A stretch of DNA of 64,000 nucleotides from Gammaproteobacteria bacterium (GCA_027315405.1 DAHUYB010000077.1:24286-88285); one strand, 5' to 3'; positions 119 to 47,192 are shown, counted from the stretch's first letter. Notes: generated by a model not told the origin, from the letters alone. Program-made: numbers and translations.

Positions 119-368
119 GGGGGTGTTTCACACTCGGCACGGGATCATAGCCACCGGGATGCAGCGGATGACAACGCAGGATACGCAGGATCGCAAGCCA
201 GCTGCCGCGCAATGCGCCGAAGCGATGGATGGCTTGTTGGGCATACGCGGAGCAGGAGGGTTCAAAGCGGCAGTGCGGACCCAGGAATGGGCTTACAAAA
301 CGCCGGTAGCCGCGAATTAAGAGAATCAGGATGCTGCGCATTGTTTTATCAATTCCTGCCAATGCCAC
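111..368 (-). CDS. yidD: membrane protein insertion efficiency factor YidD
   Basis: 85-aa ORF with the YidD signature [13 protein letters not shown]...[13 protein letters not shown]. Same length as E. coli YidD. Overlaps the yidC start by 8 nt. Confidence 0.88.
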
Positions 369-850
369 TCGAGGCTGCTGCGTAAGCCGGCGTTATCCTG
401 AGAAGCTGCCAGCGATTTGACCTGAATTACGATGTCCACGGCCGGAAGTATGGTCCGGTGCCTGCGGAAGCTTTCCCGCACCTGGCGCTTGATGCGATTG
501 CGTGCAGTGGCGTTGGGTACCGCCTTGCGCGCTACGCTGATACCCAGCCGGGCAGCAAAATGACCGGGGCTGGCATAGACGCGGAAGTAAGAATCTGAAG
601 TCCGCGCCCCTATGCGAAAGGTACGGTTGAAATCCGCCGGCGTGCGCAGTCGCGCTTCAGGAGAGAAGCCGTTTGTGGGCGAACTTAAGGGCAGAGTCTC
701 GCCCGGCCCTTGGCGCGGCGGGCGCTGAGTACCTGGCGACCGCGTTTCGTTGCCATGCGCGCGCGAAACCCGTGGGTACGCTTCCGGTGAATAATGCTGG
801 GTTGATAGGTTCTTTTCATGCTGATGGCCGGTCTGATGCGCTGCGTTCAC
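326..850 (-). CDS. rnpA: ribonuclease P protein component RnpA (start codon unresolved; the conserved core begins near 670)
   Basis: The C-terminal ~115 aa ([18 protein letters not shown]...[14 protein letters not shown]...) match the RnpA family. The only ATG/GTG/TTG in this frame upstream of the core is GTG at 850. CTG at 694 is the only near-cognate start after the rpmH stop region. See finding. Confidence 0.8.
685..819 (-). CDS. rpmH: 50S ribosomal protein L34
   Basis: Not in the ORF track because it is only 44 aa. The reverse strand from ATG 819 reads [44 protein letters not shown] then a stop. This is an almost invariant L34 sequence. Confidence 0.96.
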
Positions 851-933
851 AGACGCGTGGGCAAAGGCGCGATATTAGACGTGTGCAACGGCCCACTGTC
901 AATATGTGGGCCTTGTTTTCCTGTATTTGGTCC

Positions 934-942
934 TGTGGATAA
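934..942 (-). promoter_or_regulatory. perfect DnaA box (TTATCCACA on the minus strand) in the rpmH-dnaA spacer
   Basis: The plus strand reads TGTGGATAA at 934..942, about 100 nt upstream of the dnaA ATG. This fits the usual dnaA autoregulatory arrangement. Confidence 0.6.
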
Positions 943-1039
943 CTCCATTGAACCGGTATAGACTCTTTCGCTCTTTCGCGCAGCATCGTCAATACGCTGC
1001 CGGGTTGAATTGAATCAATCGAACTGCCGGGGGTCTAGC

Positions 1040-2359
1040 ATGCCATCGCTGTGGACGCGGTGTGTGGATCATTTAGAGCATGAGCTTACGGAGCAAGAGC
1101 TCAACACCTGGATCCGGCCACTACACGCTCAGGAAGACAGCCATACGCTGCGGCTACTAGCGCCCAACCGCTTCGTCATGGATTGGGTACGAGACCGCTT
1201 CCTGCCAAGGATTTCCAAGCTCGCCAAGGAATTGGCTGAAGACCGGGAACGCCGGGTGCTGTTGGAGGTCGGAGCGGTCCAAGAAATACCCCCGCAGGGC
1301 CACGCCACCGTACCTATCGGTAATCTGGTCCCCACATCGGGTACCGGGCTTAACCTTCTGTATACCTTTGAAACATTTGTTGAAGGCAAATCGAATCAAT
1401 TTGCTCTGGCTGCCGCCCGCCAAGTGGCTGAGAACCCCGGCAGGGCATACAACCCCCTGTTTATCTATGGCGGGGTGGGGCTCGGCAAGACCCATCTTAT
1501 GCAGAGTGTCGGCCACCTGATCCAGTCACGTAACCCCCAAGCACGGGTCGCGTATGTGCACTCTGAGCGCTTTGTTAACGACATGGTGCGTGCCCTACAA
1601 CACAACACGATTAACGAATTCAAACGCCATTACCGCACCCTGGACGCATTACTCATCGATGACATACAGTTTTTCGTCGGCAAGGAACGTTCCCAAGAAG
1701 AATTTTTCCATACCTTTAATGCCCTGCTGGAGGGCCAGCAGCAGGTAATCCTTACCTGTGACCGCTATCCCAAAGAAGTCGAGGGCCTGGAGGAGCGGCT
1801 CAAATCACGCTTTGGGTGGGGGCTTACGGTCCCCATTGAGCCACCTGAGCTGGAAACCAGGGTGGCTATTCTTATGAAAAAAGCCAGCCTTGAAAATGTC
1901 GCGTTGCCGAATGATGTGGCATTTTTCATCGCTCAGCGAGTCAGTTCCAATATCCGGGAATTGGAAGGCGCGCTGCGCCGGGTGGCAGCTAATGCCCAGT
2001 TTACCGGCCAAGCCGTAAGCTTGGAAAATACCCGCGAATGGCTTAAAGATATCCTTGCGCGGCAGGACCGCTTAGTTACCTTGGACAATATTCAGAAAAC
2101 AGTAGCGGATTACTTTCATGTGCGGGTCAGTGACATGCTCTCCAAAAAACGCAGTCGCTCAATTGCTAGACCCCGGCAGGTCGCCATGAGTCTTGCCAAG
2201 GGCCTTACCACCCATAGCCTGCCGGAAATCGGTGATGCTTTTGGCGGTCGCGACCATACGACCGTACTGCATGCCTGCCGCAAGGTACAGGAATTACGTG
2301 GTATGGAACCGCGGTTTGAGGAAGACTATCAAACCCTCATAAGAACCCTTTCATGTTGA
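1040..2359 (+). CDS. dnaA: chromosomal replication initiator protein DnaA
   Basis: From ATG 1040 the product ([16 protein letters not shown]...NTWIRPL...[14 protein letters not shown]) aligns with the E. coli DnaA N-terminus. It has the AAA+ Walker [11 protein letters not shown] and a C-terminal DnaA-box-binding domain. The TTG at 1010 in the ORF track is probably an over-extension. Confidence 0.97.
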
Positions 2360-2581
2360 ACAATTGTGGGTAAGCTGTGGAAGACTCTTGGGGCTTAAAC
2401 CACACACAGTGTATGAACGGGTTAACACCACTCTTTCGGCCGAGAAACCAACAAGATAAAAACAATCTAACTATATGATTTATAAATAAAATTTAGTTTT
2501 ATAAACATAAATGCATGATTTAATTATGATAATTAATTATCTAAAATTATCTATCTCCAATATCTATAGACAGGTGGATAA
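2360..2581. other. candidate oriC / DNA-unwinding element in the dnaA-dnaN spacer
   Basis: About 115 bp of extreme AT-richness (approx 2455..2570) in an otherwise GC-rich window, with a repeated ATGATTTA. It is flanked by DnaA-box-like 9-mers: TGTGGGTAA at 2366..2374 (8/9), TGTGGAAGA at 2376..2384 (7/9) and GGTGGATAA at 2573..2581 (8/9). Confidence 0.5.
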
Positions 2582-3682
2582 ATGAAATTTGAGACCCTTC
2601 GGGACACCCTTCTTTCCCCTGTTCAGGCGGTCGTTGGCGTTGTGGAAAGAAGGCAAACCATGCCCATACTTGCCAACCTATTACTAGCTGTTTCGGATGA
2701 TGGGCTATCGGTAACCGGTACGGACATGGAAGTTGAGCTGGTCGCAAATACCCCAGTTGAGGTACAGGAAAAGGGCGAAGTGACGGTTCCAGCCCGCAAA
2801 CTGCTGGAAATCTGCCGGGCTCTACCAGAAGGGGCAAAACTTGCGATCAGTTTGGATAATGGCAAGCTTTCCCTACGTTCGGGGCATAGCCGCTTTAGTC
2901 TAGCCACTTTGCCTGCTACCGATTTTCCCTCCGTTGAGGATATCCAGGTGCAACGGGGTTTCGCGGTCAGCCAAAAACAGCTGCGTGATTTGATTGCCAG
3001 AACGGCATTTTCCATGGCTCAGCAGGATGTGCGTTATTACTTGAACGGTTTGTTGTTGGAAACCAGTGAAAATCGCTTACGCGCAGTGGCCACGGATGGA
3101 CACCGGCTAGCACTGTGTGATTTACAAACCACGGGCGCAAACAGCCCTGTGCAACAAGTAATCCTGCCGCGTAAAGGCGTGCTCGAGCTGCAGCGTCTTT
3201 TAGCGGATGTTGATACGGAAGCCCAAATCGAGTTGGGTATGAACCACCTGCGTGTAAGCTTGCCTAGCCTGAGGTTCACGTCCAAGTTGATTGATGGACG
3301 ATTCCCGGAGTATGAGCGGGTGGTACCTAAAGGTGGCGACAAGGTGTTCATCGCCGATCGCCAGCTTTTGCGCGAAACTCTGGGCCGGGCCGCTATTCTC
3401 TCCAACGAAAAATACAGGGGGGTAAGGTTGCAGCTGGCAACAAAACACCTGAAAGTCATGGCCCACAATCCAGAACAGGAAGAGGCAGAAGATGAGTTGG
3501 AAGTTCAATATCAAGGAAATGAACTGGAGATAGGGTTCAATGTGACTTATCTGTTGGATGCTTTGGCAGCACTTGAGAGTGAGCAGGTACATATCACTTT
3601 GACCGACGCCAATAGCAGTTGCTTAATCCGTGGGCCAGAAAATGAACACTGCCGCTATGTGGTTATGCCGATGCGGCTCTGA
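2582..3682 (+). CDS. dnaN: DNA polymerase III beta sliding clamp
   Basis: 366-aa ORF with the typical DnaN start (MKFETLRDTLLSPVQAVVGVVERRQTMPILANLLL) and three-domain length. Synteny dnaA-dnaN-recF. Confidence 0.97.
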   Translation: MKFETLRDTLLSPVQAVVGVVERRQTMPILANLLLAVSDDGLSVTGTDMEVELVANTPVEVQEKGEVTVPARKLLEICRALPEGAKLAISLDNGKLSLRSGHSRFSLATLPATDFPSVEDIQVQRGFAVSQKQLRDLIARTAFSMAQQDVRYYLNGLLLETSENRLRAVATDGHRLALCDLQTTGANSPVQQVILPRKGVLELQRLLADVDTEAQIELGMNHLRVSLPSLRFTSKLIDGRFPEYERVVPKGGDKVFIADRQLLRETLGRAAILSNEKYRGVRLQLATKHLKVMAHNPEQEEAEDELEVQYQGNELEIGFNVTYLLDALAALESEQVHITLTDANSSCLIRGPENEHCRYVVMPMRL

Positions 3683-3694
3683 CCAGTAATCCTT

Positions 3695-4765
3695 ATGGGG
3701 TTATTGAATCTCTCCTTGCGTAATTTCCGTTGTTTTACTGCCGCCGACCTCGAATTTGCCCCAACGTTTAATTTGATCACCGGGGAAAATGCTTCAGGAA
3801 AAACCAGCCTGATTGAAAGCATTTTCCTTATGGGTCGAGGGCGTTCTTTCAGGACGGCAAACTTGGAATCGGCGGTTCGTGCGGGCACCAACGGATTTCA
3901 GATTGTCGGGCGGGTATCCAGCCAATCCACCCCAATACCTATAGGACTTGCCCGTGAAAATGGTCATCTAGAGGCGAGAATTGCAGGGCAGACGCCGGCG
4001 ACATTGGCGCAGTTATCGGAAACCTTTCCAGTTCAGTTAGTAGATAATCAGGCACATGAAATTATACGAGGCAACCCACATCGGCGCCGGCAGTTTTTGG
4101 ATTGGGGTGTGTTTCACGTGGAACCGACCTTTTTCCCTGTCTGGCGCCGTTATCAGCGGGTTTTGCGCCAGCGCAATACGCTGCTGCGCAACGGCAATCC
4201 CCAACCAGAGATATCGAGTTGGGATAGGGAATTGGTTTCTCAGGGGGAAGCGTTGGGTGCCTTCAGGCAGGAATATCTAGCGAGCTTGCTCCCGACTGCC
4301 ACCGCCTGGGCGAGTCAAGCCTTAGGCGGACTCGAAATTAGTTTGGAGTATCGCCCGGGGTGGCCAAGAGAGCAGGGTTTTCCGGATGCCTTGAAGAATG
4401 CAATCGAACGGGATCGATATGCGGGTATGACGCAGGTCGGACCCCATAGGGCCGAGATGCTGATAAAAGTGGAGGGTAAGCCTGCTCAAGAAAGGGTCTC
4501 CCGGGGACAGGAAAAAGCGTTGGTTGGAGCCTTATTGCTGGCTCAAGCTGCTGTTTACCGGGCGCGTAGTGGGCGGCCCTGCACCTTGTTGCTGGATGAT
4601 TTAGCCGCTGAATTCGATAGCGGACACCTAACCCGATTTCTAGACCGCGTAGAAGAATGCGGCGCCCAGACCCATATTACTGCCATAGATCCCCCTTCTT
4701 CGATCACAAGCCGGGTAGCAAAGGCGTTCCACGTGAAACAAGACAAAATCACCGAAATGGTATAA
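3695..4765 (+). CDS. recF: DNA replication/repair protein RecF
   Basis: 356 aa. Walker A GENASGKTS, SMC-like signature region and C-terminal LLLDDLAAEFD (Walker B). Confidence 0.95.
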   Translation: MGLLNLSLRNFRCFTAADLEFAPTFNLITGENASGKTSLIESIFLMGRGRSFRTANLESAVRAGTNGFQIVGRVSSQSTPIPIGLARENGHLEARIAGQTPATLAQLSETFPVQLVDNQAHEIIRGNPHRRRQFLDWGVFHVEPTFFPVWRRYQRVLRQRNTLLRNGNPQPEISSWDRELVSQGEALGAFRQEYLASLLPTATAWASQALGGLEISLEYRPGWPREQGFPDALKNAIERDRYAGMTQVGPHRAEMLIKVEGKPAQERVSRGQEKALVGALLLAQAAVYRARSGRPCTLLLDDLAAEFDSGHLTRFLDRVEECGAQTHITAIDPPSSITSRVAKAFHVKQDKITEMV

Positions 4766-7958
<3,193 letters not shown>

Positions 7959-17229: not shown

Positions 17230-17694
17230 CTAAAAAGTCACGGTGGCCACGATACTATCGTCGTAGCTTCCTGGAGCAATATTCTCCAGTGCCGGAATCT
17301 GGCCATAGACGCTGATACGCACGCGATTGTTGTTGAAATTTTTGCTGACCGTCTGGGTACCGCCGGTGCCGTCACCAAAGATGATCACCCGCGCGGCAGT
17401 GGTATACAGGTTGTAATCCAATTGGTCGCTGGTGGTACCACTGATCATGTAACGGGGGTTGTAGGTGCCGCTTTGGCCGGAACTGAGTGCCGCCGTGAGC
17501 GTGCCCATACCATTGCAGACGATAGTAATGCGCCCCGCGCGGTTCAATGGATTAGTGGAAAACGGGTTATAGTTGCCGAATGCGATTGGCCGAGCCGTGA
17601 TGGTGCAGGTTGCGGCTCTTAGCGTATTTGACAGGAGAAAGGCCATGCCCGCACATAGCAACAACATGATTGTAGGACGATTAAGCCGCTGCAT
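17230..17694 (-). CDS. spore coat protein U (SCPU) domain pilin-like subunit
   Basis: Signal peptide. C-terminal VYGQIPALENIAPGSYDDSIVATVTF is shared with the two paralogues in the operon. Last gene of the chaperone-usher operon. Confidence 0.8.
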   Translation of the reverse strand: MQRLNRPTIMLLLCAGMAFLLSNTLRAATCTITARPIAFGNYNPFSTNPLNRAGRITIVCNGMGTLTAALSSGQSGTYNPRYMISGTTSDQLDYNLYTTAARVIIFGDGTGGTQTVSKNFNNNRVRISVYGQIPALENIAPGSYDDSIVATVTF

Positions 17695-17696
17695 GT

Positions 17697-18152
17697 TTAA
17701 AAACTCACTGTTACTGTGATCGAGTCGCTATAACTACCTGGCATTACATTTTGCTGAGCGGGAATTTGTCCGTAAACATTAAACATCGTGGTGCTCTTAT
17801 TTTTGAACGTCTGGACGATATCACCCGTACTACCGATTCCATTGCCCCATACGGTGGTCAGGCTGGCTGTGGTATAAAGATTATAAGTCAGGGTATTTAT
17901 GCCAGTATTCATGGCGCGCGGAAAATAACTACCGCTGTCACCGGTGCTGAGGTCCACAGTCATAGTACCTTTACCGCGAGCGCACACGACGCTGATGAGA
18001 TTAGTCACAGTCATAATCGTGGGCGCCGCATCCATCGGATCGTAATTGCCGAAATTAAAAGTATTGGTAGCTACGGCGCAGGTCGCCGCATGTGCAATGC
18101 AGGGCGTGAGCGATGCAATACTTACTATGCCCAGAATGCAAAGACCACACAT
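17697..18152 (-). CDS. spore coat protein U (SCPU) domain pilin-like subunit
   Basis: From ATG 18152 the product starts MCGLCILGIVSIASL, a signal peptide. The C-terminus is VYGQIPAQQNVMPGSYSDSITVTVSF. The start abuts the usher stop codon. Confidence 0.75.
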   Translation of the reverse strand: MCGLCILGIVSIASLTPCIAHAATCAVATNTFNFGNYDPMDAAPTIMTVTNLISVVCARGKGTMTVDLSTGDSGSYFPRAMNTGINTLTYNLYTTASLTTVWGNGIGSTGDIVQTFKNKSTTMFNVYGQIPAQQNVMPGSYSDSITVTVSF

Positions 18153-20752
18153 CACAAATTTACTCCTTTGCAGATATATGTACCCAAATCCGGTAGTGGA
18201 TCTTTGGATTCGGGCATGTTCACGCTCAATTCGCAACCCTGATGATCCCAGCTTGCGCGCAGTGAGTTATGCGCCGCAAGCCCGGTGATATATACCTCGC
18301 CATCGAACCCAACGGGGAAGGTCTGCTGCTGTCCTTCAATCCGGACTATGGCGCCGGCCGGCAGCGGCTTGCCGTCTTGCAGGTTGATGGTCAGCGTCGC
18401 GCCGCGGGTGGAGGTGATCGGGAATTTCACAATCACACCGCTGTTAAAACGCGGCACAGCGTTCAGTTGGAGAGTGTTCACTTGGGCGCTGAGCGGCAGA
18501 CTGCCTGCGCCAAGACTGACGGGATTATTCTGGTAAGGCCGCATGATAGGCACCAACGCGTTGCCGTTCCTGTCGGTGGTGCCGATTGGCTGATTGTCCG
18601 CATACACCGTGACATCAGGGATCCCCGGTACCTCGACTAGGCCGAAGGCACCCTGAATCTGGCGGATCGGAAATACACCGCCACCGATGAACGCCAAGCT
18701 GCCCGCAGCTTCACCCTGGTAGGTGGTTTGGCCGTCGGCGCTGAGCGCGCCCACGCGATAGGTGCCGGCATTATTCTGGTAATCATATTCCGCCTGATTC
18801 ATGGCATCCGGACCCGCTTGGATGCCGACGTGGTAGCCACTGCCAGTACCGGCGGGCAGATTCTCCTGTACTGTGGCGAAGGCCTGATCAGTATTGTTTT
18901 GCCGCTGCACACCAACGCTTATATTGCTACGTTCCCCGAAGGGCAGCGTGAACATCAGGATCACGCCGTTATTGCTACCGCCAGTTAGGTTATGGAAGGC
19001 ATTGGCTATGAAAAAACCATTTCTCCCCACGTTCACACTGTAGCTTGCAGTTATCAAACGTGCTTGGCCGAACAGCGGGCTATCCTGATCCAGATAGGCA
19101 AGGGAAACCGAACCGCCCCCGCCCAGGAAGGCGCCGACACTCGCGGTGATCTGTTTATGGGGGGCCGGCTGGCCGTTGTATCCCAGCTCGGTGAAGTCCG
19201 GGCTTGCCAACTCGATATTGGCGCCGGCGTTGAAGACCTGCCATTGCCGCTGGTACCCGATGAGACCCAGCGCGCCGTGCCCTAGATTGCTGTGGCTCAA
19301 GGCTAGGGCGGCATTGAAGACGCCGGTATCAGGCGTGGCGTAGGTGCTGCCGACGCTCACATCCTTAAGATTGGCGGAAGTCTCAGCGCGCAGCTCACCT
19401 GTGAAATCATCTGTAAAGCCATGACGGAAAGTGCCAGTTGCGGCGGATGGGCCGTAGTCGTTGCTGTCTAGGCCATAGTTATCCCGCAACTTGCCGACGG
19501 AAAAAGAATAATCATTCAGTCCCGATTTCAATAAATCTGCGGTGGCGTAGAAGGATGACGAGATGACCTGCTCGCGGCCCAGCATATCTTGCACGACCAC
19601 TGTCGCCGTGCCCGGACCGGTGACCACGGGAACCGCGGGAATCGAGAACGGACCTGGGGGTATTTGCTGTGATTGCTTGAGTACTCCATTCACATACAAC
19701 TGCACCGTCGAGGGCAGTGCCGCCTGGCCGCTGATCACCGGCAGAGGAAAAGTGATGAAGTACGGGCGGGTGGCGAAATTGGTGCCGTACTGGAGGCCGC
19801 CCATGCGCACCGCCAGTCCGGTCATGCCGCCGTCGGTGATGCTGTCGCCGAGCTGCAGCGTGGTCATGCTGTCGGGATCGTCATGCGTCCAGGTAGTATC
19901 CAGGCGCGTCCACTGACTGTGGGCATGGTTGATGTTCTGGCCGATGAAACTGCTGGTGCCCACACCCCAGTCGTTGAATAGACCGGCTTCGAGTAAGCCA
20001 TTAATCGCCGTGAGTCCGGGGCTATGGCTGCCCAGGAAATCGTAGTTCAGAAAACCACCCCAGGGGGTATGTTGCGCCCGCGGATTTTGCCGGAAAAGTC
20101 CATCCACGATGGTGCCACTGAATTCCGCGGCCAGTGCCGTAATCCACAAGGTTTCGGTGGACGAGTCCACACGATAACTGAGGCCCGGAATTGCATCCAA
20201 GGAATAATATTTCTCACCCTGATACAGGTAGGGTTTGACTGCAGGAGGGTGCAAGCGCCAGCGCTCCAGATCGGAACCTTTGGCGTACAAGTGCTCGTCA
20301 GGGGTTGTGCCAAAACCCAGAAACATATTGGTTTCATGCCAAGGCTGCTGGTTGATGTGCACTTCCAGCAGCAGCTCGACGGGTGCGAGCGCAGTTGTCG
20401 GTAATTGTTTGGTGGACGGTGGTGTTGCGGTCCTGTGCCCAGCACTGGACACAGTTGTGGTAGTGGCTGAGGCTGTCTGCAGTGGCGCTATGCTGACAGT
20501 CGCTTGATCGCCACCCGCCTCGAATCTTTGATGCGGTGCGGAAATTGCCTTGTGCTCAAGCCGGGATCTTGAAGACGCCTTAGAACTGACGACCGCTGCC
20601 AGGGTTTTAGCCGCAGTAGTAAATGTCGGTTTCACCGTGGTTGTTATCAGAGCACGCGAGTGGCACCGGCTGAGTAGCAACAGAATAAGCAGTGCGAGTG
20701 CTGCCGATCCGGTCGCCAGCCAGCGCCCCCGGATTTTGAACGGGCTGTTCAC
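18152..20752 (-). CDS. fimbrial outer-membrane usher (PapC/CsuD-like)
   Basis: 866 aa, beta-barrel-type composition, positioned after a PapD-like chaperone. About 120 aa of Thr/Ser/Ala-rich N-terminal sequence precedes the LLLEVHINQQ usher N-domain. Confidence 0.85.
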   Translation of the reverse strand: MNSPFKIRGRWLATGSAALALLILLLLSRCHSRALITTTVKPTFTTAAKTLAAVVSSKASSRSRLEHKAISAPHQRFEAGGDQATVSIAPLQTASATTTTVSSAGHRTATPPSTKQLPTTALAPVELLLEVHINQQPWHETNMFLGFGTTPDEHLYAKGSDLERWRLHPPAVKPYLYQGEKYYSLDAIPGLSYRVDSSTETLWITALAAEFSGTIVDGLFRQNPRAQHTPWGGFLNYDFLGSHSPGLTAINGLLEAGLFNDWGVGTSSFIGQNINHAHSQWTRLDTTWTHDDPDSMTTLQLGDSITDGGMTGLAVRMGGLQYGTNFATRPYFITFPLPVISGQAALPSTVQLYVNGVLKQSQQIPPGPFSIPAVPVVTGPGTATVVVQDMLGREQVISSSFYATADLLKSGLNDYSFSVGKLRDNYGLDSNDYGPSAATGTFRHGFTDDFTGELRAETSANLKDVSVGSTYATPDTGVFNAALALSHSNLGHGALGLIGYQRQWQVFNAGANIELASPDFTELGYNGQPAPHKQITASVGAFLGGGGSVSLAYLDQDSPLFGQARLITASYSVNVGRNGFFIANAFHNLTGGSNNGVILMFTLPFGERSNISVGVQRQNNTDQAFATVQENLPAGTGSGYHVGIQAGPDAMNQAEYDYQNNAGTYRVGALSADGQTTYQGEAAGSLAFIGGGVFPIRQIQGAFGLVEVPGIPDVTVYADNQPIGTTDRNGNALVPIMRPYQNNPVSLGAGSLPLSAQVNTLQLNAVPRFNSGVIVKFPITSTRGATLTINLQDGKPLPAGAIVRIEGQQQTFPVGFDGEVYITGLAAHNSLRASWDHQGCELSVNMPESKDPLPDLGTYICKGVNL

Positions 20753-20843
20753 GGCTTAGCCCGTAGCGGCCAGAAAGCGGCCTTTGGATTGTGTGTGTTG
20801 ACAGCTTGCCGTGAATATCAAGCCCGCTATCGGCACCGCAGTG

Positions 20844-21569
20844 TTATTTTCCCGTGACCAGTTGCGCATGGAGCCTGCCCCGGTCGGTATCGGCGGTGAT
20901 TTCAAGCGGTGCGTTGACTGTCAGTGGTGATGCTAATTTCACGACCCAGGTGTGGCCTGAACCGGGCAATACATAGTTACTGGATTTCTGCGCTAATGGC
21001 CGTTTCTCATCAGAGGCTGTGAGTGTCCACTTCAGGATTTGTGCGTGTGCTGTGCCTGTATTGACTGCGCTGACTTGCAGTTCAGTGGAGCTGAGCCGTT
21101 TGGCTGACCATTTCAGTACGGGCTTGGTATGCGTCGCCGGCTCTACGAATATCGGAATCCCCACGCGCAATGCAATCTGTACGCCGCGGAACGTCGGTGT
21201 AGGTGCCGGCGGCACCTCGCTAAGAAACAGACGATAGCAGGTTTCCATTTTGGCATCCGGTTGGGTGCGCAATCCGACCCGCACTATCTGCTGACTGCCG
21301 GCAGTCACGGTGAAAATCGGCGGCGTGGCCAGGAGCTTGCGGCTAGGCGTATAGATGTCCTGGCCGTGGTCCTGGGACCACGCCACGATCTGCAGCTGCA
21401 CCACTGTCGGTGTCTCACTGCTGTTAGTCACTCTCAATACATCGGTGGAATGATCGGCGGAGAGCGTCAGACGTACGGGATTTACCTGGAAGGAAGCTGC
21501 TTCCGCCCACAGGGGCGGAAGCAGCATTAAGACCAGTATTAGAATCCGACGCATGACAACACTCTGCAC
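20844..21569 (-). CDS. periplasmic pilus chaperone (PapD/CsuC-like)
   Basis: 241 aa. Signal peptide (LMLLPPLWAEA) followed by FQVNPVRLTLSADHSTDVLRVTNSSETP, a PapD-like fold pattern. Confidence 0.85.
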   Translation of the reverse strand: MQSVVMRRILILVLMLLPPLWAEAASFQVNPVRLTLSADHSTDVLRVTNSSETPTVVQLQIVAWSQDHGQDIYTPSRKLLATPPIFTVTAGSQQIVRVGLRTQPDAKMETCYRLFLSEVPPAPTPTFRGVQIALRVGIPIFVEPATHTKPVLKWSAKRLSSTELQVSAVNTGTAHAQILKWTLTASDEKRPLAQKSSNYVLPGSGHTWVVKLASPLTVNAPLEITADTDRGRLHAQLVTGK

Positions 21570-21587
21570 GTGACACGATGCCTGTTA

Positions 21588-22112
21588 TCAGAAGTTTACT
21601 GTAACCGTGATGGTGTCAGCATAGCTGCCGGTCGGGACATTCTGTCCAGCAGGAAGCTGGCCGTAAACCGTATAGGTTTGCTGGTTGCCTACACCTGGGC
21701 CCGCGCCTGTGCCGCTGTCGCAGTTGTTACCGGCGCCACAACTGCTGTTCCAGACCAGCGTGTAACCGCTGTCGGTGTACAGGTTGTAGTTGAGGGTATC
21801 AGTACCGGCATCCTGCATGATCCGGTTGGCTGCGGTACCGCCATGAATGCCGTAATTAAGGGCGATAGTGTACGGCGTGTTCTTGGTGCAATTGACGTTG
21901 ATAGTGCTGGTACCGGTGATAGCGGCTCCGGCATTGACGTCGTAGTTGCCAAACCCCAGGGTACCTGCGGAATTGATCACGCAAGACGTTACCACTGTGG
22001 CGGTAACCTGGAAGGTGCTGGTCGTGGTGCCCGCCTGGGCCGGCACGCTGGCGATGGCTAGGGGCAGGATGGCGGCGCCGGTGATGGCGAGGGTGCGTAT
22101 AAGCTTCAACAT
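21588..22112 (-). CDS. spore coat protein U (SCPU) domain major pilin candidate (CsuA/B-like)
   Basis: First gene of the operon. Signal peptide with AQA cleavage site. The C-terminus is VYGQLPAGQNVPTGSYADTITVTVNF. Confidence 0.8.
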   Translation of the reverse strand: MLKLIRTLAITGAAILPLAIASVPAQAGTTTSTFQVTATVVTSCVINSAGTLGFGNYDVNAGAAITGTSTINVNCTKNTPYTIALNYGIHGGTAANRIMQDAGTDTLNYNLYTDSGYTLVWNSSCGAGNNCDSGTGAGPGVGNQQTYTVYGQLPAGQNVPTGSYADTITVTVNF

Positions 22113-41646: not shown

Positions 41647-42129
41647 ATGAAACTACGTGATCACAAGCTGGCACGGCTGATTCTCGAGCTTCTGAGTCAG
41701 GGCATCACGCCCCACAAGATTGCGCTCACCGTCGCCTTGGGTGTGGTACTGGGTGTGGCCCCGGTGCTCGGCAGCACCACGCTACTGTGCACCGCCGCCG
41801 CCCTGGTGTTCGGCATCAACCTGCCGCTGATTCAGGTGGTGAACTACCTGGTTTACCCCCTGCAACTGCTATTGTTGATTCCCTTCATCCAGGGTGGGCA
41901 ATGGCTGTTTCGCCAGCCGCCTTTGCCGTTCTCGTTTGCGCAACTCACCGCGCTGCTGCGATTGAGATTCTGGCAGACACTGGCGATGCTCTGGGAATAC
42001 ACCCTGCACGGGTTGATTGCATGGCTGATCCTGGGCGGGATGTCTGCATTCATCATCTATACGGTGTTGCGCCCAATCCTCGGGTATCTGATCGTGAGAA
42101 AAACCGCCAGCGAGAAGCATCTTGATTAA
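41647..42129 (+). CDS. DUF2062 domain membrane protein
   Basis: 160 aa. GITPHKIALTVALGVVLGVAPVLGSTTLLCTAAALVFGINLPLIQVVNYLVYP fits DUF2062. Confidence 0.72.
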   Translation: MKLRDHKLARLILELLSQGITPHKIALTVALGVVLGVAPVLGSTTLLCTAAALVFGINLPLIQVVNYLVYPLQLLLLIPFIQGGQWLFRQPPLPFSFAQLTALLRLRFWQTLAMLWEYTLHGLIAWLILGGMSAFIIYTVLRPILGYLIVRKTASEKHLD

Positions 42130-42240
42130 TTAGCGGGTAGTAAATGTGTTTCCAGGTTGTATTCCGAAGCTGCCTGCCACACCGGCCTTGAGTTCCAGAA
42201 CGTATTTTGCCGGGGCGGCGCTGGCACAGGTGGCTACTCT
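42130..42240 (-). pseudogene. orphan 3'-terminal remnant of a DUF192 gene
   Basis: The minus-strand translation ...CASAAPAKYVLELKAGVAGSFGIQPGNTFTTR(stop) parallels the C-terminus of the intact DUF192 gene at 46740..47192 (...YSSAAPAKYVLELHPGVAEKLGIRPGVILTIEP). No N-terminal part is present. Confidence 0.65.
42190..42224. repeat. left copy of the 35-nt direct repeat flanking the microcin islet
   Basis: GAGTTCCAGAACGTATTTTGCCGGGGCGGCGCTGG. Identical at 34/35 positions to 46803..46837. Confidence 0.9.
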
Positions 42241-42261
42241 GGGATGAGCGCAGAGATATAC

Positions 42262-42292
42262 TTGACAAAATCGCGCGGGGGGGGGGTAGGGT
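42262..42292 (+). promoter_or_regulatory. sigma70-like promoter candidate with a G10 homopolymer in the spacer
   Basis: Perfect -35 TTGACA (42262..42267), a 19-nt spacer containing G10 (42277..42286), and a weak -10 TAGGGT (42287..42292). Confidence 0.3.
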
Positions 42293-42306
42293 TGTCGCCG
42301 ATGAGC

Positions 42307-42336
42307 AGGACATACATTTTTACTGCTCACCATAAT
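42307..42336 (+). promoter_or_regulatory. sigma70-like promoter candidate proximal to the microcin gene
   Basis: AGGACA (42307..42312), 18-nt spacer, CATAAT (42331..42336). Lies about 28 nt upstream of ATG 42364. Confidence 0.35.
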
Positions 42337-42363
42337 TGCAAAATTACTCGAAAGGAGACAAAC

Positions 42364-42564
42364 ATGCGAAACCTTACCGCGAACGAATTCTCATTTGTAA
42401 GTGGTGGAGCACCAGCAGGTGAGTCCGAATTGGACACTGTCGCACAAGGTCTGGCCATTGGCGCTTTGGCAAACGCACTTGTTGGAGATGAACCAGGAGC
42501 GTTAACCTTAGCCGCGGCGGCGGGCGGAATAAAAATTGGCGAGTATATTTACTCGCTCTTTTAA
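42364..42564 (+). CDS. double-glycine-leader bacteriocin (class II microcin-like) precursor, 66 aa
   Basis: SD AAGGAG lies 8 nt upstream. The product is MRNLTANEFSFVSGG / APAGESELDTVAQGLAIGALANALVGDEPGALTLAAAAGGIKIGEYIYSLF. The leader is nearly superimposable on the colicin V leader MRTLTLNELDSVSGG. It is encoded next to a C39-ABC exporter. It is nested in the 135-aa track ORF 42157..42564. Confidence 0.75.
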   Translation: MRNLTANEFSFVSGGAPAGESELDTVAQGLAIGALANALVGDEPGALTLAAAAGGIKIGEYIYSLF

Positions 42565-42581
42565 AAACGAGATGATCTTTT

Positions 42582-42615
42582 GGTCCTTGTCAATTTGACA
42601 GGGACCTTTCGTTTT
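42582..42615 (+). terminator. intrinsic terminator/attenuator after the microcin gene
   Basis: 10-bp stem (GGTCCTTGTC 42582..42591 pairs with GACAGGGACC 42597..42606, one G-U pair), 5-nt loop, then UUUCGUUUU. Confidence 0.6.
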
Positions 42616-42651
42616 CACGTGAATTTCGATCTAAAAATTTCTGTACCAGCT

Positions 42652-43188
42652 ATGGTAAAAATCCACAAAATACGGCCTCTTGCAATCACCATTTGGCTAA
42701 TTGGGGTTGTAACACTCGGTTTAGGTCTTTATGTTTGGGGTATTAAATCAAATCCACTATTTTTCATGGAGATGTTGATATTTGGCTTAATTTGTATATG
42801 GATGACATTGTACAGCTACCTATGGGGGCATCAGAGAGGTCACCCGACACGATTTATTGCCATCGTGGTGTTTTCAAGTTTTTGTGTCTGCTTTTATCTG
42901 CGCTCGATCGGCATACTTGGCGGTCACTTATATTTTGTTATCCCGCTGTTATTTGTTGTGATTCTTATCTTGGTGCAATCTAAAACGAAACGACAATTTG
43001 CAGAAGACTATAAATCAGGCATTAAGCGAAATCATTTTAATGATACTAAAGAACGATTCGAGGTAACCAAAAAGACTACAGCCAGTTATCCCCACTATTT
43101 GCAAATAATTTTGCCCAAGCGATATTTGGACAACTATGATTCATTAAAAGCTTGGCTTAGATCGATTAAGGAACATATGCAAAAATAG
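42652..43188 (+). CDS. putative immunity protein (4-TM membrane protein, no recognised family)
   Basis: 179 aa from ATG 42652. Four hydrophobic helices then a Lys-rich cytoplasmic tail. AT-rich codon usage unlike the rest of the window. Sits in the immunity-gene position between the precursor and exporter genes. There is no clear SD. Confidence 0.5.
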   Translation: MVKIHKIRPLAITIWLIGVVTLGLGLYVWGIKSNPLFFMEMLIFGLICIWMTLYSYLWGHQRGHPTRFIAIVVFSSFCVCFYLRSIGILGGHLYFVIPLLFVVILILVQSKTKRQFAEDYKSGIKRNHFNDTKERFEVTKKTTASYPHYLQIILPKRYLDNYDSLKAWLRSIKEHMQK

Positions 43189-43354
43189 ATATAAAGCAGG
43201 AATTCCTATCATGGGAGACTGTAAATTGAACTGTGTAGCTGCTTCATGAGAGCTTACCACTGGCAGTCATGAGGAGTGAAGCGGATGATCCTCAAGTCGG
43301 AGACCTTGGACGAAGTGCTGAAAGATAGGCGTGCACCGCCCTGCGGGTATTTCC

Positions 43355-44598
43355 ATGCCTTCACTGTTCAGACCTGAAGTTTTCAAGCACAAAACAACCT
43401 TACGCTTCGGCGCCGTTATGGTGCCAACCCCTCTTCCTCTATGGTTTATGAGCACCTTTACGCTGATCTTGCTCGCCTCAATTGCCGCTTACTTCTGGGG
43501 GGGCATTACACGCGCAAGGTAACGGTGGAAGGCTATCTGCTACCTACGAAGGGACTGGTGCGCTTGTATGCGCCCGAGCTAGGCATTGTGAGCGAACGCA
43601 AGGTCGCGCAGGGTGGGCGCGTCCACAAAGATGACACGCTTCTGGTCATCGCGATTCCGCGCAGCTCAACTAGTGCGGCGAACGTAAATCAGGCGCTGGC
43701 GCAGGCCGTCGAGCAGACTGAGGCGGCGATCCACGCGCAGATGACCGAGGCCGTTGAGCTTGAGCAAAGCCAGGAAGCGTCGTTCCAGGCCAACCTCGTC
43801 AATTTGCGCACGAATTTGAGTGAAGAGCGTGCCCAGCTCAACACGCAGAAGAAATTGCTGGCGATCCTTGCGACGCGACAGAAGAAGTACGCCACATTTG
43901 AAGGCTCGGGATTGATCTCGGAATTGGACATCAGGAATGCGGAACAAGCGTGGCTGGAGCAGGTCGCGAAAGTCCAAGCACTGGAGCAATCCATTACACA
44001 GGCCACGGGTCAAATTCAGAGCACTCAGTTCCAGTTGGCGCAAGCCAATATCAACCTGCAAAACCAACTTGCCCAGTATCAACAATCGTTGAGCACGGCC
44101 GAACAGCAACTCACTCAATATCAGGCTGGGGACAACTTCGTACTCAAGGCGCCGGTGGACGGTACGGTGTCCGCCATGCTAGTGCAGCCGGGGCAGACGG
44201 TGTCTCCGCAAACCCCGCTGGTCATCTTGATGCCCACGGGGTCACAACTCGAAGCGCGTTTGTTGATCCCCGCGGGCGCCATGGGTTTCGTAAAAGTTGG
44301 CCAGAAAGTCAGGCTGCGTTACGACGCGTTTCCCTACCAGAACTTTGGCACTTATCAGGGACGCGTCACGCAGGTTTCCAATGCCGTTTTCACACCATCT
44401 GAACTACCGGGGCCGCTCGCCATCAACGCAGCCGTGTATCCCGTAGAAGTGGCGCTCGATTCACAGGATGTCATGGCCTACGGGCATCCGGTGGCGCTCC
44501 AGCCGGGCCTGTCACTGAGCGCGGATGTGCTCTTGGCTCGCGAACGCATTATTCAATGGCTATTTGAGCCACTTTACAGTTTGAAGGGCAAACTCTAG
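43355..44598 (+). pseudogene. cvaA: CvaA/HlyD-family membrane fusion protein, reading frame split at a G7 tract
   Basis: The N-terminal part (43355..43522, MPSLFRPEVFKHKTTLRFG...TM helix...AAYFWGG) and the main part (track ORF 43441..44598, ...GGHYTRKVTVEGYLLP...) are in different frames. One extra G in the run 43497..43503 joins them into a ~414-aa CvaA-like protein. Confidence 0.85.
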
Positions 44599-44619
44599 AA
44601 GTTCCCGGAGGACGTAGGA

Positions 44620-46731
44620 GTGACGCTGCGGTTCTCGCGCCGGCAGTTAACGGTAATGCTGCAAACCGAAGCCGCGGAATGCGGCCTTGCCTGCTTGGCC
44701 ATGGTTTTCAGTTTTCATGGCCACCGCATGGATGTGGGTGAGCTGCGGCGCCGATACAGTTTTTCTCTCAAGGGCGCGACACTCGCGCATCTCATTACCA
44801 TTGCCAACGGCTTGGGGTTCATCACGCGCCCCTTGCGGCTGGAACTTGAGGATTTACCAAAGCTTACCTGCCCCGCGATTCTGCACTGGGACTTGAATCA
44901 TTTCGTGGTGCTGAAGGCCGCACGCGGGCGCCACGTGGTGATTCACGATCCGGCTCGCGGGAGCCGCAGCCTCAATCTTGACGAGGTTTCCAAGCATTTT
45001 ACAGGCGTGGCGCTGGAGCTTGCTCCCGGCCACGGTTTTCAAACTAAAGCCGCTCCCGAAATACCAGCCATCTGGTCACTCCTTGGCGGTTGGCGGGGTA
45101 TGCTGGGCGCTCTTACCCAGATTCTGGTGTTTTCGCTGGCGCTGGAAGCCTTCGCGATTCTCAGCCCGTTCTTTACGCAGCTTGTCGTGGACCAGGTGCT
45201 GGTGAACCGCGACATGAACCTGTTGACGGTGCTCGGCATCGGTTTTGGTCTGCTGGCCATCATCAACGTGGTGGTCACGGCTTTGCGGGGTTGGATGGTG
45301 GCCTATCTCGGCAGTCACCTGCAATTTCACTCCGCGGCCGCGCTCATGCGGCATTTGGTGGGGTTGCCGTTGGACTTCTTCGCCAAAAGGCATATCGGCG
45401 ACGTGGTCTCGCGCTTTAATTCCATGAGCACCATTCAGCAGACCATGACTTCTGGGCTCATCGAGGCGCTGGTGGACGGCGTCATGGTGATATTCACCGT
45501 TGCCGTCATGTTGTTCTATAGCGTGCCGCTCACGCTGTTGATAGTCGCATTGATCGTGGGCTACGCAATCATCCGGTTTCTCGCCTACCGTCCGCTGCAC
45601 ACTGCCACCGAAGAGCAGATCATCCAGCTCGCCAAGCAGCAGTCCAATTTCCTGGAAACCGTGCGCGGCATGCAGAGTGTGAAAGTAGCCGGTTCCGAAG
45701 GAGAACGCCACACTCAGTATCAGAACCGGCTGGCGGACAACGTGAATGCTTCATTTATCGTCAGCAAGCTCGGTATCTGGTTCAAGGCCACAAACGGACT
45801 GTTGTTCGGTCTTGGGACCATCGCGGTGATCTGGTGGGGCGCAAGCGAAGTCATGGCCGGTATGTTGTCCATCGGCATGTTGATCGCATTCATTTCCTAC
45901 GCCAGCCAGAGCACCGGCAAGGCCGGGGCACTGATAGACAAAGCCATTGCCTTCCGCATGCTGCGGCTGCATGCGGAGCGGGTGGGCGATATTGTGTTTG
46001 CCGAGCCGGAGGCAGTTTCGTCTTTACCGCGGCTGGGACAGGTGCCCATCCGCGGCAGGATCGAAGTGGAGAATTTGTGCTACCGCTACGGTGATCTGGA
46101 AGCGCCGGTTCTGAGAAACGTGAGCTTTTACATCGAGCCAGGCGAGTCGGTAGGCATCGTTGGTCCGTCGGGCTGCGGCAAAACCACGTTGGTCAAGCTC
46201 CTGCTTGGCCTCATGCGGCCTACGGAAGGGACGATTAAGGTGGATGGTCTCGATATCCAGACCCTGGGCCTTTCTGAGTACCGTCGGCACGTGGGCGCGG
46301 TGATGCAAGAGGATCAGCTCTTTGCCGGTACTTTGTCGGACAATATCGCGTTTTTCGATCCGCAGGCGGATCAGTCATGGATTGAAACCTGTGCGAAACT
46401 CGCGGCTATCCACGGCGATATTCTGACCATGCCCATGGCCTACAACACGTTGATTGGCGACATGGGCACGGTTCTCTCCGGCGGCCAGAAGCAGAGAGTA
46501 CTGCTGGCGCGGGCACTTTATCGCCGACCGCGAATATTGCTGCTGGACGAGGCTACCAGCCACCTGGATGTACCCACGGAAAAACTGGTGAGCGACGCCG
46601 TGCGGCGACTGAAAATTACCCGCATTATTGTTGCTCATCGCTCCGAGACCATACGCTTAGTTGATCGGGTGCTTGGAATAATGCCGAATAAACCAGGTGT
46701 TACCGAACTGCGCAGAGTGAAAAATGTTTGA
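44620..46731 (+). CDS. cvaB: bacteriocin/microcin ABC exporter with N-terminal C39 peptidase domain (CvaB-like)
   Basis: 703 aa. QTEAAECGLACLAMV (catalytic Cys), HWDLNHFVVL, six TM segments, Walker A GPSGCGKTT, LSGGQKQR, LLLDEATSHLD. Collinear with CvaB as I recall it. Confidence 0.93.
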   Translation: MTLRFSRRQLTVMLQTEAAECGLACLAMVFSFHGHRMDVGELRRRYSFSLKGATLAHLITIANGLGFITRPLRLELEDLPKLTCPAILHWDLNHFVVLKAARGRHVVIHDPARGSRSLNLDEVSKHFTGVALELAPGHGFQTKAAPEIPAIWSLLGGWRGMLGALTQILVFSLALEAFAILSPFFTQLVVDQVLVNRDMNLLTVLGIGFGLLAIINVVVTALRGWMVAYLGSHLQFHSAAALMRHLVGLPLDFFAKRHIGDVVSRFNSMSTIQQTMTSGLIEALVDGVMVIFTVAVMLFYSVPLTLLIVALIVGYAIIRFLAYRPLHTATEEQIIQLAKQQSNFLETVRGMQSVKVAGSEGERHTQYQNRLADNVNASFIVSKLGIWFKATNGLLFGLGTIAVIWWGASEVMAGMLSIGMLIAFISYASQSTGKAGALIDKAIAFRMLRLHAERVGDIVFAEPEAVSSLPRLGQVPIRGRIEVENLCYRYGDLEAPVLRNVSFYIEPGESVGIVGPSGCGKTTLVKLLLGLMRPTEGTIKVDGLDIQTLGLSEYRRHVGAVMQEDQLFAGTLSDNIAFFDPQADQSWIETCAKLAAIHGDILTMPMAYNTLIGDMGTVLSGGQKQRVLLARALYRRPRILLLDEATSHLDVPTEKLVSDAVRRLKITRIIVAHRSETIRLVDRVLGIMPNKPGVTELRRVKNV

Positions 46732-46739
46732 CTGCTGCG

Positions 46740-47192
46740 TCATGGTTCAATGGTCAAAATAACGCCGGGACGGATTCCAAGCTTTTCCGCTACGCCCGGA
46801 TGGAGTTCCAGCACGTATTTTGCCGGGGCGGCGCTGGAATAAGAAGGGCAGGGATTCATCTTGCAAGGTGGCGTATCCGCCGACACGTTGATGAGCCGGC
46901 GCTGTGCATCGAAGAACAGAATATCCAATGGAATGAGTGTATGCTTCATCCAGAAATAACGCAGCTGCGCGTTGGAGTAGACAAACAGCATGCCGTGGCC
47001 GGCTGCCAAGTGCGTACGGTACATCAGACCGCGTTCACGGGCGGCGTCGGTGGCCGCAATTTCCACGCTGAAACTGTGACCTGCGAGTACCACGTGGGAT
47101 CCCGTAGGGGGCGCCGCAAACACGGCCGAGGTGACAATGAACAAGGCAAACAGAAGATTTCGACTTAAAATAAGAGGACGGCGCATCAGCAT
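46740..47192 (-). CDS. DUF192 domain-containing secreted protein
   Basis: 150 aa. Signal peptide, ...GLMYRTHLAAGHGMLFVY...WMKHTLIPLDILFFD...AAPAKYVLEL pattern of DUF192/COG1430. Confidence 0.8.
   Translation of the reverse strand: MLMRRPLILSRNLLFALFIVTSAVFAAPPTGSHVVLAGHSFSVEIAATDAARERGLMYRTHLAAGHGMLFVYSNAQLRYFWMKHTLIPLDILFFDAQRRLINVSADTPPCKMNPCPSYSSAAPAKYVLELHPGVAEKLGIRPGVILTIEP
46803..46837. repeat. right copy of the 35-nt direct repeat flanking the microcin islet
   Basis: GAGTTCCAGCACGTATTTTGCCGGGGCGGCGCTGG, inside the 3' end of the intact DUF192 gene. Confidence 0.9.

Follow-up and report, generated by a model that had tools for sequence, protein, structure and literature searches.

A predicted microcin islet without a recombinase gene in the 3' end of a gammaproteobacterial DUF192 gene

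Background

How can a small gene cluster that encodes no recombinase be set precisely into the end of a protein gene and leave that gene intact? The question is raised by a stretch of 64,000 nucleotides from a gammaproteobacterium (GCA_027315405.1, DAHUYB010000077.1:24286-88285), here called the window, in which a predicted microcin islet lies between two copies of the 3' end of a DUF192 gene that share a direct repeat of 35 bp. An earlier reading of the sequence (the original prediction) saw in this arrangement the footprint of an element that had entered the 3' end of a gene and brought its own replacement end. In most models of island mobility an island is assumed to have its own integrase, and besides the microcin H47 island of Escherichia coli well-documented cases without an integrase are scarce.

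Comparison with contigs of the same species shows that an islet of 4613 bp (42225-46837, one copy of the core repeat counted) is inserted in the 3' end of the DUF192 gene, that a tail of 20 codons borne by the islet keeps the gene whole, and that the native end of 31 codons has been displaced by 4.6 kb. The locus is a natural within-species polymorphism in which a bacteriocin cassette enters a protein gene precisely, a surrogate end keeps the gene intact and no recombinase is carried along.

The insertion site

The two copies of the repeat, 42190-42224 (GAGTTCCAGAACGTATTTTGCCGGGGCGGCGCTGG) and 46803-46837, are identical at 34 of 35 positions as originally predicted, the sole mismatch being an A at 42199 against a C at 46812. 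With up to three mismatches allowed, the 35-mer occurs just twice in the window, and 0 of 100 shuffles gave any occurrence (none expected by chance). In both copies the minus strand encodes SAAPAKYVLEL, followed by a tail of 19 codons on the left or 20 codons on the right and then by a stop, so that the ...AAPAKYVLEL... motif with a diverged tail and stop that had been claimed for both copies is found in each. On the stop-codon side a repeat search lengthens the pair, without gaps, to 73 nt at 75% identity (42152-42224 and 46765-46837). On the gene-upstream side of the left core the similarity ends sharply at 42224/42225, and the 38 nt past the core (42225-42262) have no significant similarity to DUF192, 228 of 1000 shuffles scoring equally high. 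Decayed 'SADTPPC' codons, which by eye seemed to extend the remnant upstream of the core in the window, were dropped as unsupported by this shuffle test; such an extension does hold in two related contigs, L099 and L095. The core is the final well-conserved nucleotide block of DUF192 ahead of the variable tail, with a mean pairwise nucleotide identity of 0.82-0.83 compared with 0.50-0.59 in the tail.

The right, attR-like copy of the core belongs to the 3' end of an intact DUF192 gene on the minus strand (46740-47192), which encodes 150 aa with a match to Pfam PF02643 over residues 41-147. The left, attL-like copy belongs to an orphan remnant of 31 codons and a stop (ASAAPAKYVLELKAGVAGSFGIQPGNTFTTR; 42130-42224, minus strand), whose stop codon at 42130-42132 directly abuts that of the convergent DUF2062 gene at 42127-42129. 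Both assignments agree with the original prediction. The DUF2062 gene (41647-42129, plus strand; Pfam PF09835, E=1.9e-14) forms the left chromosomal flank.

The predicted empty site, with DUF2062 convergent with an uninterrupted DUF192 gene, was found in five contigs of the same species, L001-L005, which come from four ENA samples and one NCBI metagenome-assembled genome (MAG). These contigs have a single copy of the 35-mer and both flanks at 99.4-99.9% identity to the window, with the DUF2062 gene at 99-100%. Their DUF192 gene ends in ...FGIQPGNTFTTR and abuts the convergent DUF2062 gene with nothing between, in the gene order 501-aa gene, DUF192, convergent DUF2062, ABC genes. The alignments with the window run to 42224 and resume at 46803, overlapping in the single 35-bp core, and the window holds exactly 4613 bases beyond the empty sites. 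The A at 42199 is unique to the left copy, all five empty-site contigs having C, and the right copy is identical to the single core of L001. Single nucleotide differences between the window and L001-L005 are evenly spread, with no divergent patch beside the islet, and the import of flanking DNA together with the islet from a diverged donor is not supported by this distribution for the window strain. The filled structure, with both junctions, recurs in the Logan contig L088 at 100% over 8174 bp, possibly from the same reads. The MAG GCA_027441035.1 holds both L003, with the empty site of the window species, and L006, which has the same synteny with an islet and a DUF192 locus of the P0024 type discussed below; two related populations from one habitat are therefore mixed in this bin, and they are plausible partners for exchange.

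Which of the two gene ends is native can be read from the tails. The remnant matches the functional gene end of L001 at 94 of 95 nt, and the nearest DUF192 homologue, P0001, has the C-terminus ...KAGVAGSFGIQPGNTFTTR with the same residues as the remnant. Over the 90 residues that precede the tail the window gene is 100% identical to P0001, against 42% in the tail. The best match to the window tail is P0024 with 80%, and the body of P0024 is 77% identical. The chimeric gene (46740-47192) thus has a native body down to 46803 and a foreign tail from 46802 on (HPGVAEKLGIRPGVILTIEP and a stop; 46740-46802, minus strand), and this GIRPGV..TIEP tail is absent from the empty sites and from relatives without the islet. 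To judge from this incongruence, the right-hand tail is foreign and borne by the islet and the left stub is native, as had been proposed when the stub was taken for the displaced original end. The closest relatives with empty sites typically have a DUF192 protein of 147 aa, with tails of the F..R type prevalent; this functional form is widespread and presumably ancestral. An exact look-up of the chimeric 150-aa protein found no record of it. The surrogate tail falls within the Pfam domain and within the region aligned to the solved DUF192 structures 3m7a and 3pjy, so an insertion without a replacement end would truncate the fold. C-terminal variation of DUF192-like genes can be the scar of an island, which is a warning for annotators.

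It is hardly credible that the remnant is unrelated to the islet and stems from a tandem duplication of DUF192 or a chimeric assembly. Metagenome assemblies may misjoin strains, and GCA_027441035.1 does hold two related populations, but the boundaries of the insertion coincide exactly with the repeat copies and L088 repeats both junctions, albeit possibly from the same reads. The same architecture is found in independent samples and lineages (L089-L092, L095-L097 and L099). Only the final 31 codons of DUF192 are duplicated, not the whole gene, and no tandem duplication was found.

Mode of insertion

The footprint of integration into a gene 3' end that had been predicted is supported, and recurrent but variable junctions in related genomes point to insertion driven by homology rather than by a classical integrase. 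We regard it as reasonably probable, without being confident, that one reciprocal crossover, made by recombination functions of the host in the final conserved block of DUF192, brought the islet in. Its two partners would have been the chromosomal core and a matching core on the islet in circular (or ends-in linear) form. A Pfam scan found no recombinase family among the open reading frames (ORFs) of 42225-46739, in line with the absence claimed for the 4.6 kb between the repeats, and because the islet encodes no recombinase, host functions would have to have made the exchange. These may be RecA-dependent, or they may be of the kind that recombines short repeats independently of RecA, as in the E. 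coli microcin H47 island. Four bases are diagnostic: the T at 42189 is native, the A at 42199 non-native, the G at 46802 foreign and the C at 46812 native. They would place the reciprocal exchange inside GAGTTCCAG (42190-42198), provided that the A at 42199 came with the islet and is not a later mutation. Precise loss would be possible through the same repeats. Subsequent spread may have occurred when the block of DUF192 end, islet and remnant was reshuffled among related genomes by homologous recombination in flanking and exporter genes, and peptide and immunity cassettes may have been swapped in the process.

Several observations weigh against a simple crossover of this kind. Since 35 bp is barely enough homology for RecA-mediated exchange, such an event would be rare. 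A core from a foreign lineage would give about 4 mismatches to the native sequence in 42199-42224, and 1 is seen; the core of L007, for comparison, differs at 3 of 35 positions. The remnant core is thus too native, and either a donor with a very similar core or heteroduplex repair or conversion is required. No circular form or attP-like junction was observed, and gain in the window and precise loss in L001 are not distinguishable from these two states alone. Nor is every case in the related lineages a simple crossover in the core, since the whole DUF192 gene of L095 is foreign (88% identity to the empty-site contig L160, compared with 96% in the flanks). Finally, the visible genome amounts to 64 kb, which leaves room for a recombinase acting in trans.

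At least four other lineages have related islets at this site. ABC homologues at least 77% identical to that of the window form a distinct clade, and several of them adjoin DUF192. Members of the clade lie between DUF2062 and DUF192 in L089-L092, L095-L097, L099, L007/L006 and L093, and further empty sites are found in L098, L100, L101, L102 and L160. No recombinases were found among the called genes of the related islets, including the ORF list of L099. The junction blocks vary by lineage: 35 bp ending in ...GGAACTC in the window, 33/34 in L099 and 53/60 in L095. The tail of L099 begins with a native-like KAGV because its block lies about 14-15 nt nearer the 3' terminus of the gene, and the block of L095 starts 24 nt further upstream. 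Four observations favour homology-guided recombination by the host over a dedicated integrase: the junction positions and the remnant lengths differ in this way among lineages; the core is nothing more than the last stretch of DUF192 with a conserved nucleotide sequence; breakpoints are visible in flanking and exporter genes; and no integrase-bearing element at the site was found in viral contigs or in about 15 related loci.

The same junctions bear on the possibility that the core is a true att site, and that the islet is moved in trans, as a satellite resembling a cis-mobilisable element (CIME), by a tyrosine or serine recombinase whose gene lies elsewhere: on the chromosome, or on an integrative and conjugative element (ICE) or a prophage with the same target in the DUF192 3' end. 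This would agree with the sharp boundary at 42224/42225, the near-perfect core and the replacement 3' end, which together are the architecture of an integrase island, with a short inverted symmetry CCAGC...GCTGG that can be read within the core, and with the short length of genome in view. We nevertheless consider it unlikely. None of the roughly 15 related loci, empty or occupied, has an integrase-bearing element at the site, the core pattern was not found in viral contigs, so that no link to a phage emerged, and no recombinase family matched among the ORFs scanned. Blocks of near-identity and remnants that vary in length among lineages are unlike a fixed crossover site. The H47 island, moreover, needed none of the 16 site-specific recombinases of its host (PMC5426353).

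Other known routes of insertion were considered and rejected. A target-site duplication by a transposon is ruled out by the 35 bp plus a diverged homologous tail of about 60 nt, and by the lack of terminal inverted repeats. Integration at a dif site by XerCD, as in integrative mobile elements exploiting Xer (IMEX), was rejected because the site lies inside a gene about 40 kb from dnaA; the core also does not appear to be dif-like. An island linked to a tRNA gene was rejected since no tRNA or tmRNA gene is present in the 64-kb window.

The remnants tell more about the history of the site, and their types track the host lineage in three cases, the window, L099 and L095. The stub of L095 (..HAGTAQKLGIRPGNRLRIRR and a stop) matches the tail native to L160/P0035, a relative whose site is empty and whose flanks are 96% identical. 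That of L099 comprises 45 codons of the F..R type and has accumulated mostly non-synonymous changes. In L089 the stub is decayed and frameshifted and of the L095 type, the 3' end of DUF2062 is L160-like, the exporter genes are 92% identical to those of L099, and a breakpoint lies inside DUF2062; L089 is therefore a recombinant, a left/right chimera of L095-like and L099-like parts. Between the window and L089 the 501-aa host protein is 97% identical, compared with 67% for HlyD and 81% for the ABC exporter. The two islets therefore do not share the descent of their hosts. The L095 lineage has an additional gene of 338 aa between DUF192 and the 501-aa gene when compared with L160 (L095 6165-7636). 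Together with the foreign DUF192 gene this implies that the imported segment was larger than the islet in that lineage.

Such cases lend some substance to another account, in which an old structure with a duplicated gene end was imported ready-made by a double crossover in the flanking genes, and the empty sites of the species arose by exact deletion from core to core. Direct repeats do permit precise deletion, L089 imported its remnant and cargo wholesale, the DUF192 gene of L095 is foreign throughout, and for distant hosts the divergence of the islets resembles that of the hosts. For the window this account is improbable all the same. The tail of the window stub is identical to the functional tail of its own species and near those of sister lineages (P0003: KAGVAASFGIQPGNTFIIR), and the flanks show no patch of imported divergence. 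Remnants matched to the host in three lineages would require at least three separate events that create a remnant, and the 147-aa form with the F..R tail is widespread and presumably ancestral. The window stub is intact, compared with the mostly non-synonymous change in L099, and was therefore in use until recently. A stub so pristine next to the decayed ones of L099 and L089 argues for a recent gain of the islet in the window.

Contents and make-up of the islet

The islet carries what its genes identify as a class II microcin module, with a precursor, a putative immunity gene, an HlyD gene and a C39-ABC exporter; the ORFs between the repeats comprise an MccV-like peptide, a membrane protein of 178 or 202 aa, HlyD and the C39-ABC transporter. 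The left end (42225-42363, plus strand) is promoter-like: a TTGACA at 42262-42267 is followed by a 19-nt spacer ending in a run of ten G (42277-42286), by TAGGGT and by a ribosome binding site, all read from the sequence. This TTGACA...G10/11...TAnnGT block also precedes the microcin gene of L089, L095 and L099 (window 42262-42292; L089 ~948-978; L095 ~497-527; L099 ~4620-4650) and is conserved across these four islets, which differ in cargo. A poly-G tract inside a promoter spacer is a classic layout for phase-variable expression.

The microcin precursor (42364-42564, plus strand) has 66 aa, and consists of a double-glycine leader as in class II microcins, MRNLTANEFSFVSGG, read from the sequence, and a Gly/Ala-rich core of 51 aa. 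Its Pfam match to MccV is weak and sub-threshold (E=9.4e-4, 20.1 bits where the cut-off is 27), and lies chiefly over the leader. A strong terminator-like hairpin with an 11-bp stem and a T run (42582-42606) comes right behind the microcin gene. It overlaps the following ORF in its long, TTG-initiated version, which makes the ATG at 42652 the probable start of the putative immunity gene (42652-43188, plus strand; 178 aa). The product has a hydrophobic N-terminal half and no Pfam family match, and its gene adjoins the precursor in the AT-rich part of the islet; the assignment as an immunity protein is made from position only. A weak homologue, 32% identical over 94 aa, is encoded in L093 (5379-5651) between the ABC exporter and DUF192, across the exporter from where the cargo usually lies, and may be an orphan immunity gene.

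The HlyD-family membrane-fusion gene (43355-44598, plus strand; Pfam HlyD_3, E=1.4e-19) has its domains but is not intact. A -1 frameshift in a run of seven G (43497-43503) splits it into the ORFs 43331-43522 and 43441-44598, where the window has TGGGGGGGCAT compared with TGGTGGGGGCAT in the intact homologues of L089 and L099. L088 shares the window sequence. The gene may have decayed to a pseudogene, the tract may be prone to slippage, or the homopolymer may have been misread in sequencing. The ABC exporter (44620-46731, plus strand; 703 aa) has the C39 peptidase domain of the CvaB/MchF type that is expected of a class II microcin cluster (Peptidase_C39 E=1e-33, ABC_membrane E=9e-37, ABC_tran E=3e-35).

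A mosaic origin had been suggested because the left kilobase of the islet seemed richer in AT than the exporter genes. The GC content is indeed 40.7% in the peptide and immunity part, 57.1% in the exporter genes and 57-58% in the flanks, and comparison with other loci bears out the mosaic more strongly than GC alone suggested. Three parts can be separated in the window islet: a unique cargo, an exporter bulk resembling L156/L157 and a right end resembling L007. The exporter bulk is nearest to L156 and L157, with about 65-90% nucleotide identity in windows of 100 nt (mostly 75-88%). At the right end a patch at 46641-46781, which runs from the last ~30 ABC codons across an 8-bp spacer into the surrogate tail and covers 14 codons at the end of that tail, is identical at 134 of 141 positions (95%) to L007 ~1647-1790, of the P0024 lineage, in surroundings of 72-83%. 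Such a patch stems either from recent recombination or from constraint on the end of the islet.

The nearest exporters, in L156-L159 (86-88% ABC identity), were expected to reveal the donor site but are not adjacent to DUF192. The exporter of L156 (4073-5305) and that of L157 (3482-4744) lie in other surroundings, one beside an ATP-grasp MvdD-like gene and the other beside an Nramp gene, and the export chassis is therefore common to other peptide systems. A scan of a genome collection with the ABC protein gave best matches of 47-56% identity, none of them beside DUF192, DUF2062 or the cargo genes. The cargo differs from islet to islet: 66+178 aa in the window, 58-60 aa plus 96 aa and an Rce1-like protein in L089/L095, 59+130 aa in L099 and 69+138 aa in L093. 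It is more AT-rich than the exporter genes in every islet.

In the rest of the window, the islet lies about 40 kb from the replication origin region, with rnpA, dnaA, dnaN, recF and gyrB recognised by eye from translations at 326-7210. A chaperone-usher cluster with subunits of the SCPU (spore coat protein U) type, likewise recognised from translations, lies at 17230-22112 and is unrelated to the islet.

Taken further, the islets might constitute a family of recombinase-free mobile cassettes, in which a captured 3' fragment of a host gene is the sole 'integration module' and serves both as a landing pad for homology and as a functional gene end. The junction of DUF192 and DUF2062 would then have been colonised repeatedly across genera by host recombination, with toxin and immunity cassettes exchanged. 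This generalisation is tentative, and we hold it to be possible rather than probable. If it were true, each cycle of excision and integration would refresh the core from the host copy, and this would account for a near-perfect core beside decayed upstream sequence and a conserved foreign tail.

The locus and its relatives illustrate how toxin and immunity cassettes are shuffled on a conserved export chassis, and provide several natural pairs of states before and after insertion for studying gene movement by short homology, possibly independent of RecA. The parts of the arrangement are already known, namely islands that restore a gene end, repeat-flanked islets without an integrase and class II microcin clusters. 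Their combination, a recombinase-free cassette with a captured functional 3' fragment of a protein gene, host-matched scars across lineages and swappable cargo, was not found in the literature searched.

Comparison with known systems

Islands, ICEs and prophages driven by an integrase restore the 3' end of tRNA, tmRNA or protein genes, as ICESt1 and ICESt3 do in fda, and encode their own tyrosine or serine recombinase beside one att site. The DUF192 islet resembles them in its element-borne replacement 3' end, in its attL/attR-like direct repeats and in the single copy at the empty site. It differs in lacking a recombinase of its own and in junction positions that vary among lineages.

CIMEs consist of cargo between att-like repeats at the 3' end of a gene and have no genes for recombination or transfer, the integrase being supplied by a cognate ICE with the same att site. 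The DUF192 islet has the same layout, with cargo flanked by att-like repeats at a gene 3' end and no recombination or transfer genes. However, no integrase-bearing partner was found at the DUF192 site in the related loci or viral contigs.

In gene content the islet is like the class II microcin and colicin V systems (cvaC-cvi-cvaA-cvaB), with a double-glycine leader, a small putative membrane immunity protein, HlyD and a C39-ABC exporter. In contrast to these, the peptide and the immunity protein of the window have no family-level match, HlyD is frameshifted, and the cluster is chromosomal and placed in a gene end.

The microcin H47 island of E. coli has no recombinase and is flanked by imperfect direct repeats; exchanges take place in four segments of identity and also occur in recA- cells (Azpiroz, Bascuas & Lavina 2011, PMC3191183). 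Its excision is unaffected in mutants of all 16 site-specific recombinases of K-12, of RecET and of multiple RecA-pathway proteins (Azpiroz & Lavina 2017, PMC5426353). The H47 island is larger (13 kb) and lies within larger pathogenicity islands of Enterobacteriaceae, whereas the host of the DUF192 islet belongs to an uncultured gammaproteobacterial clade, and the H47 repeats are not described in PMC3191183 or PMC5426353 as the conserved 3' end of a protein gene or as a replacement gene end. The DUF192 islet is known from sequence alone, presence and absence within one species being the only hint of its mobility, and the likeness is one of design and not of established common descent. With this understood, both are small chromosomal systems for the production of, immunity to and export of a microcin, flanked by imperfect direct repeats with stretches of identity, and encode neither an integrase nor an excisionase nor other recombination genes. 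Both also have hybrid empty sites in other strains, and the several exchange positions of the H47 island fit the variable junctions of the DUF192 islets.

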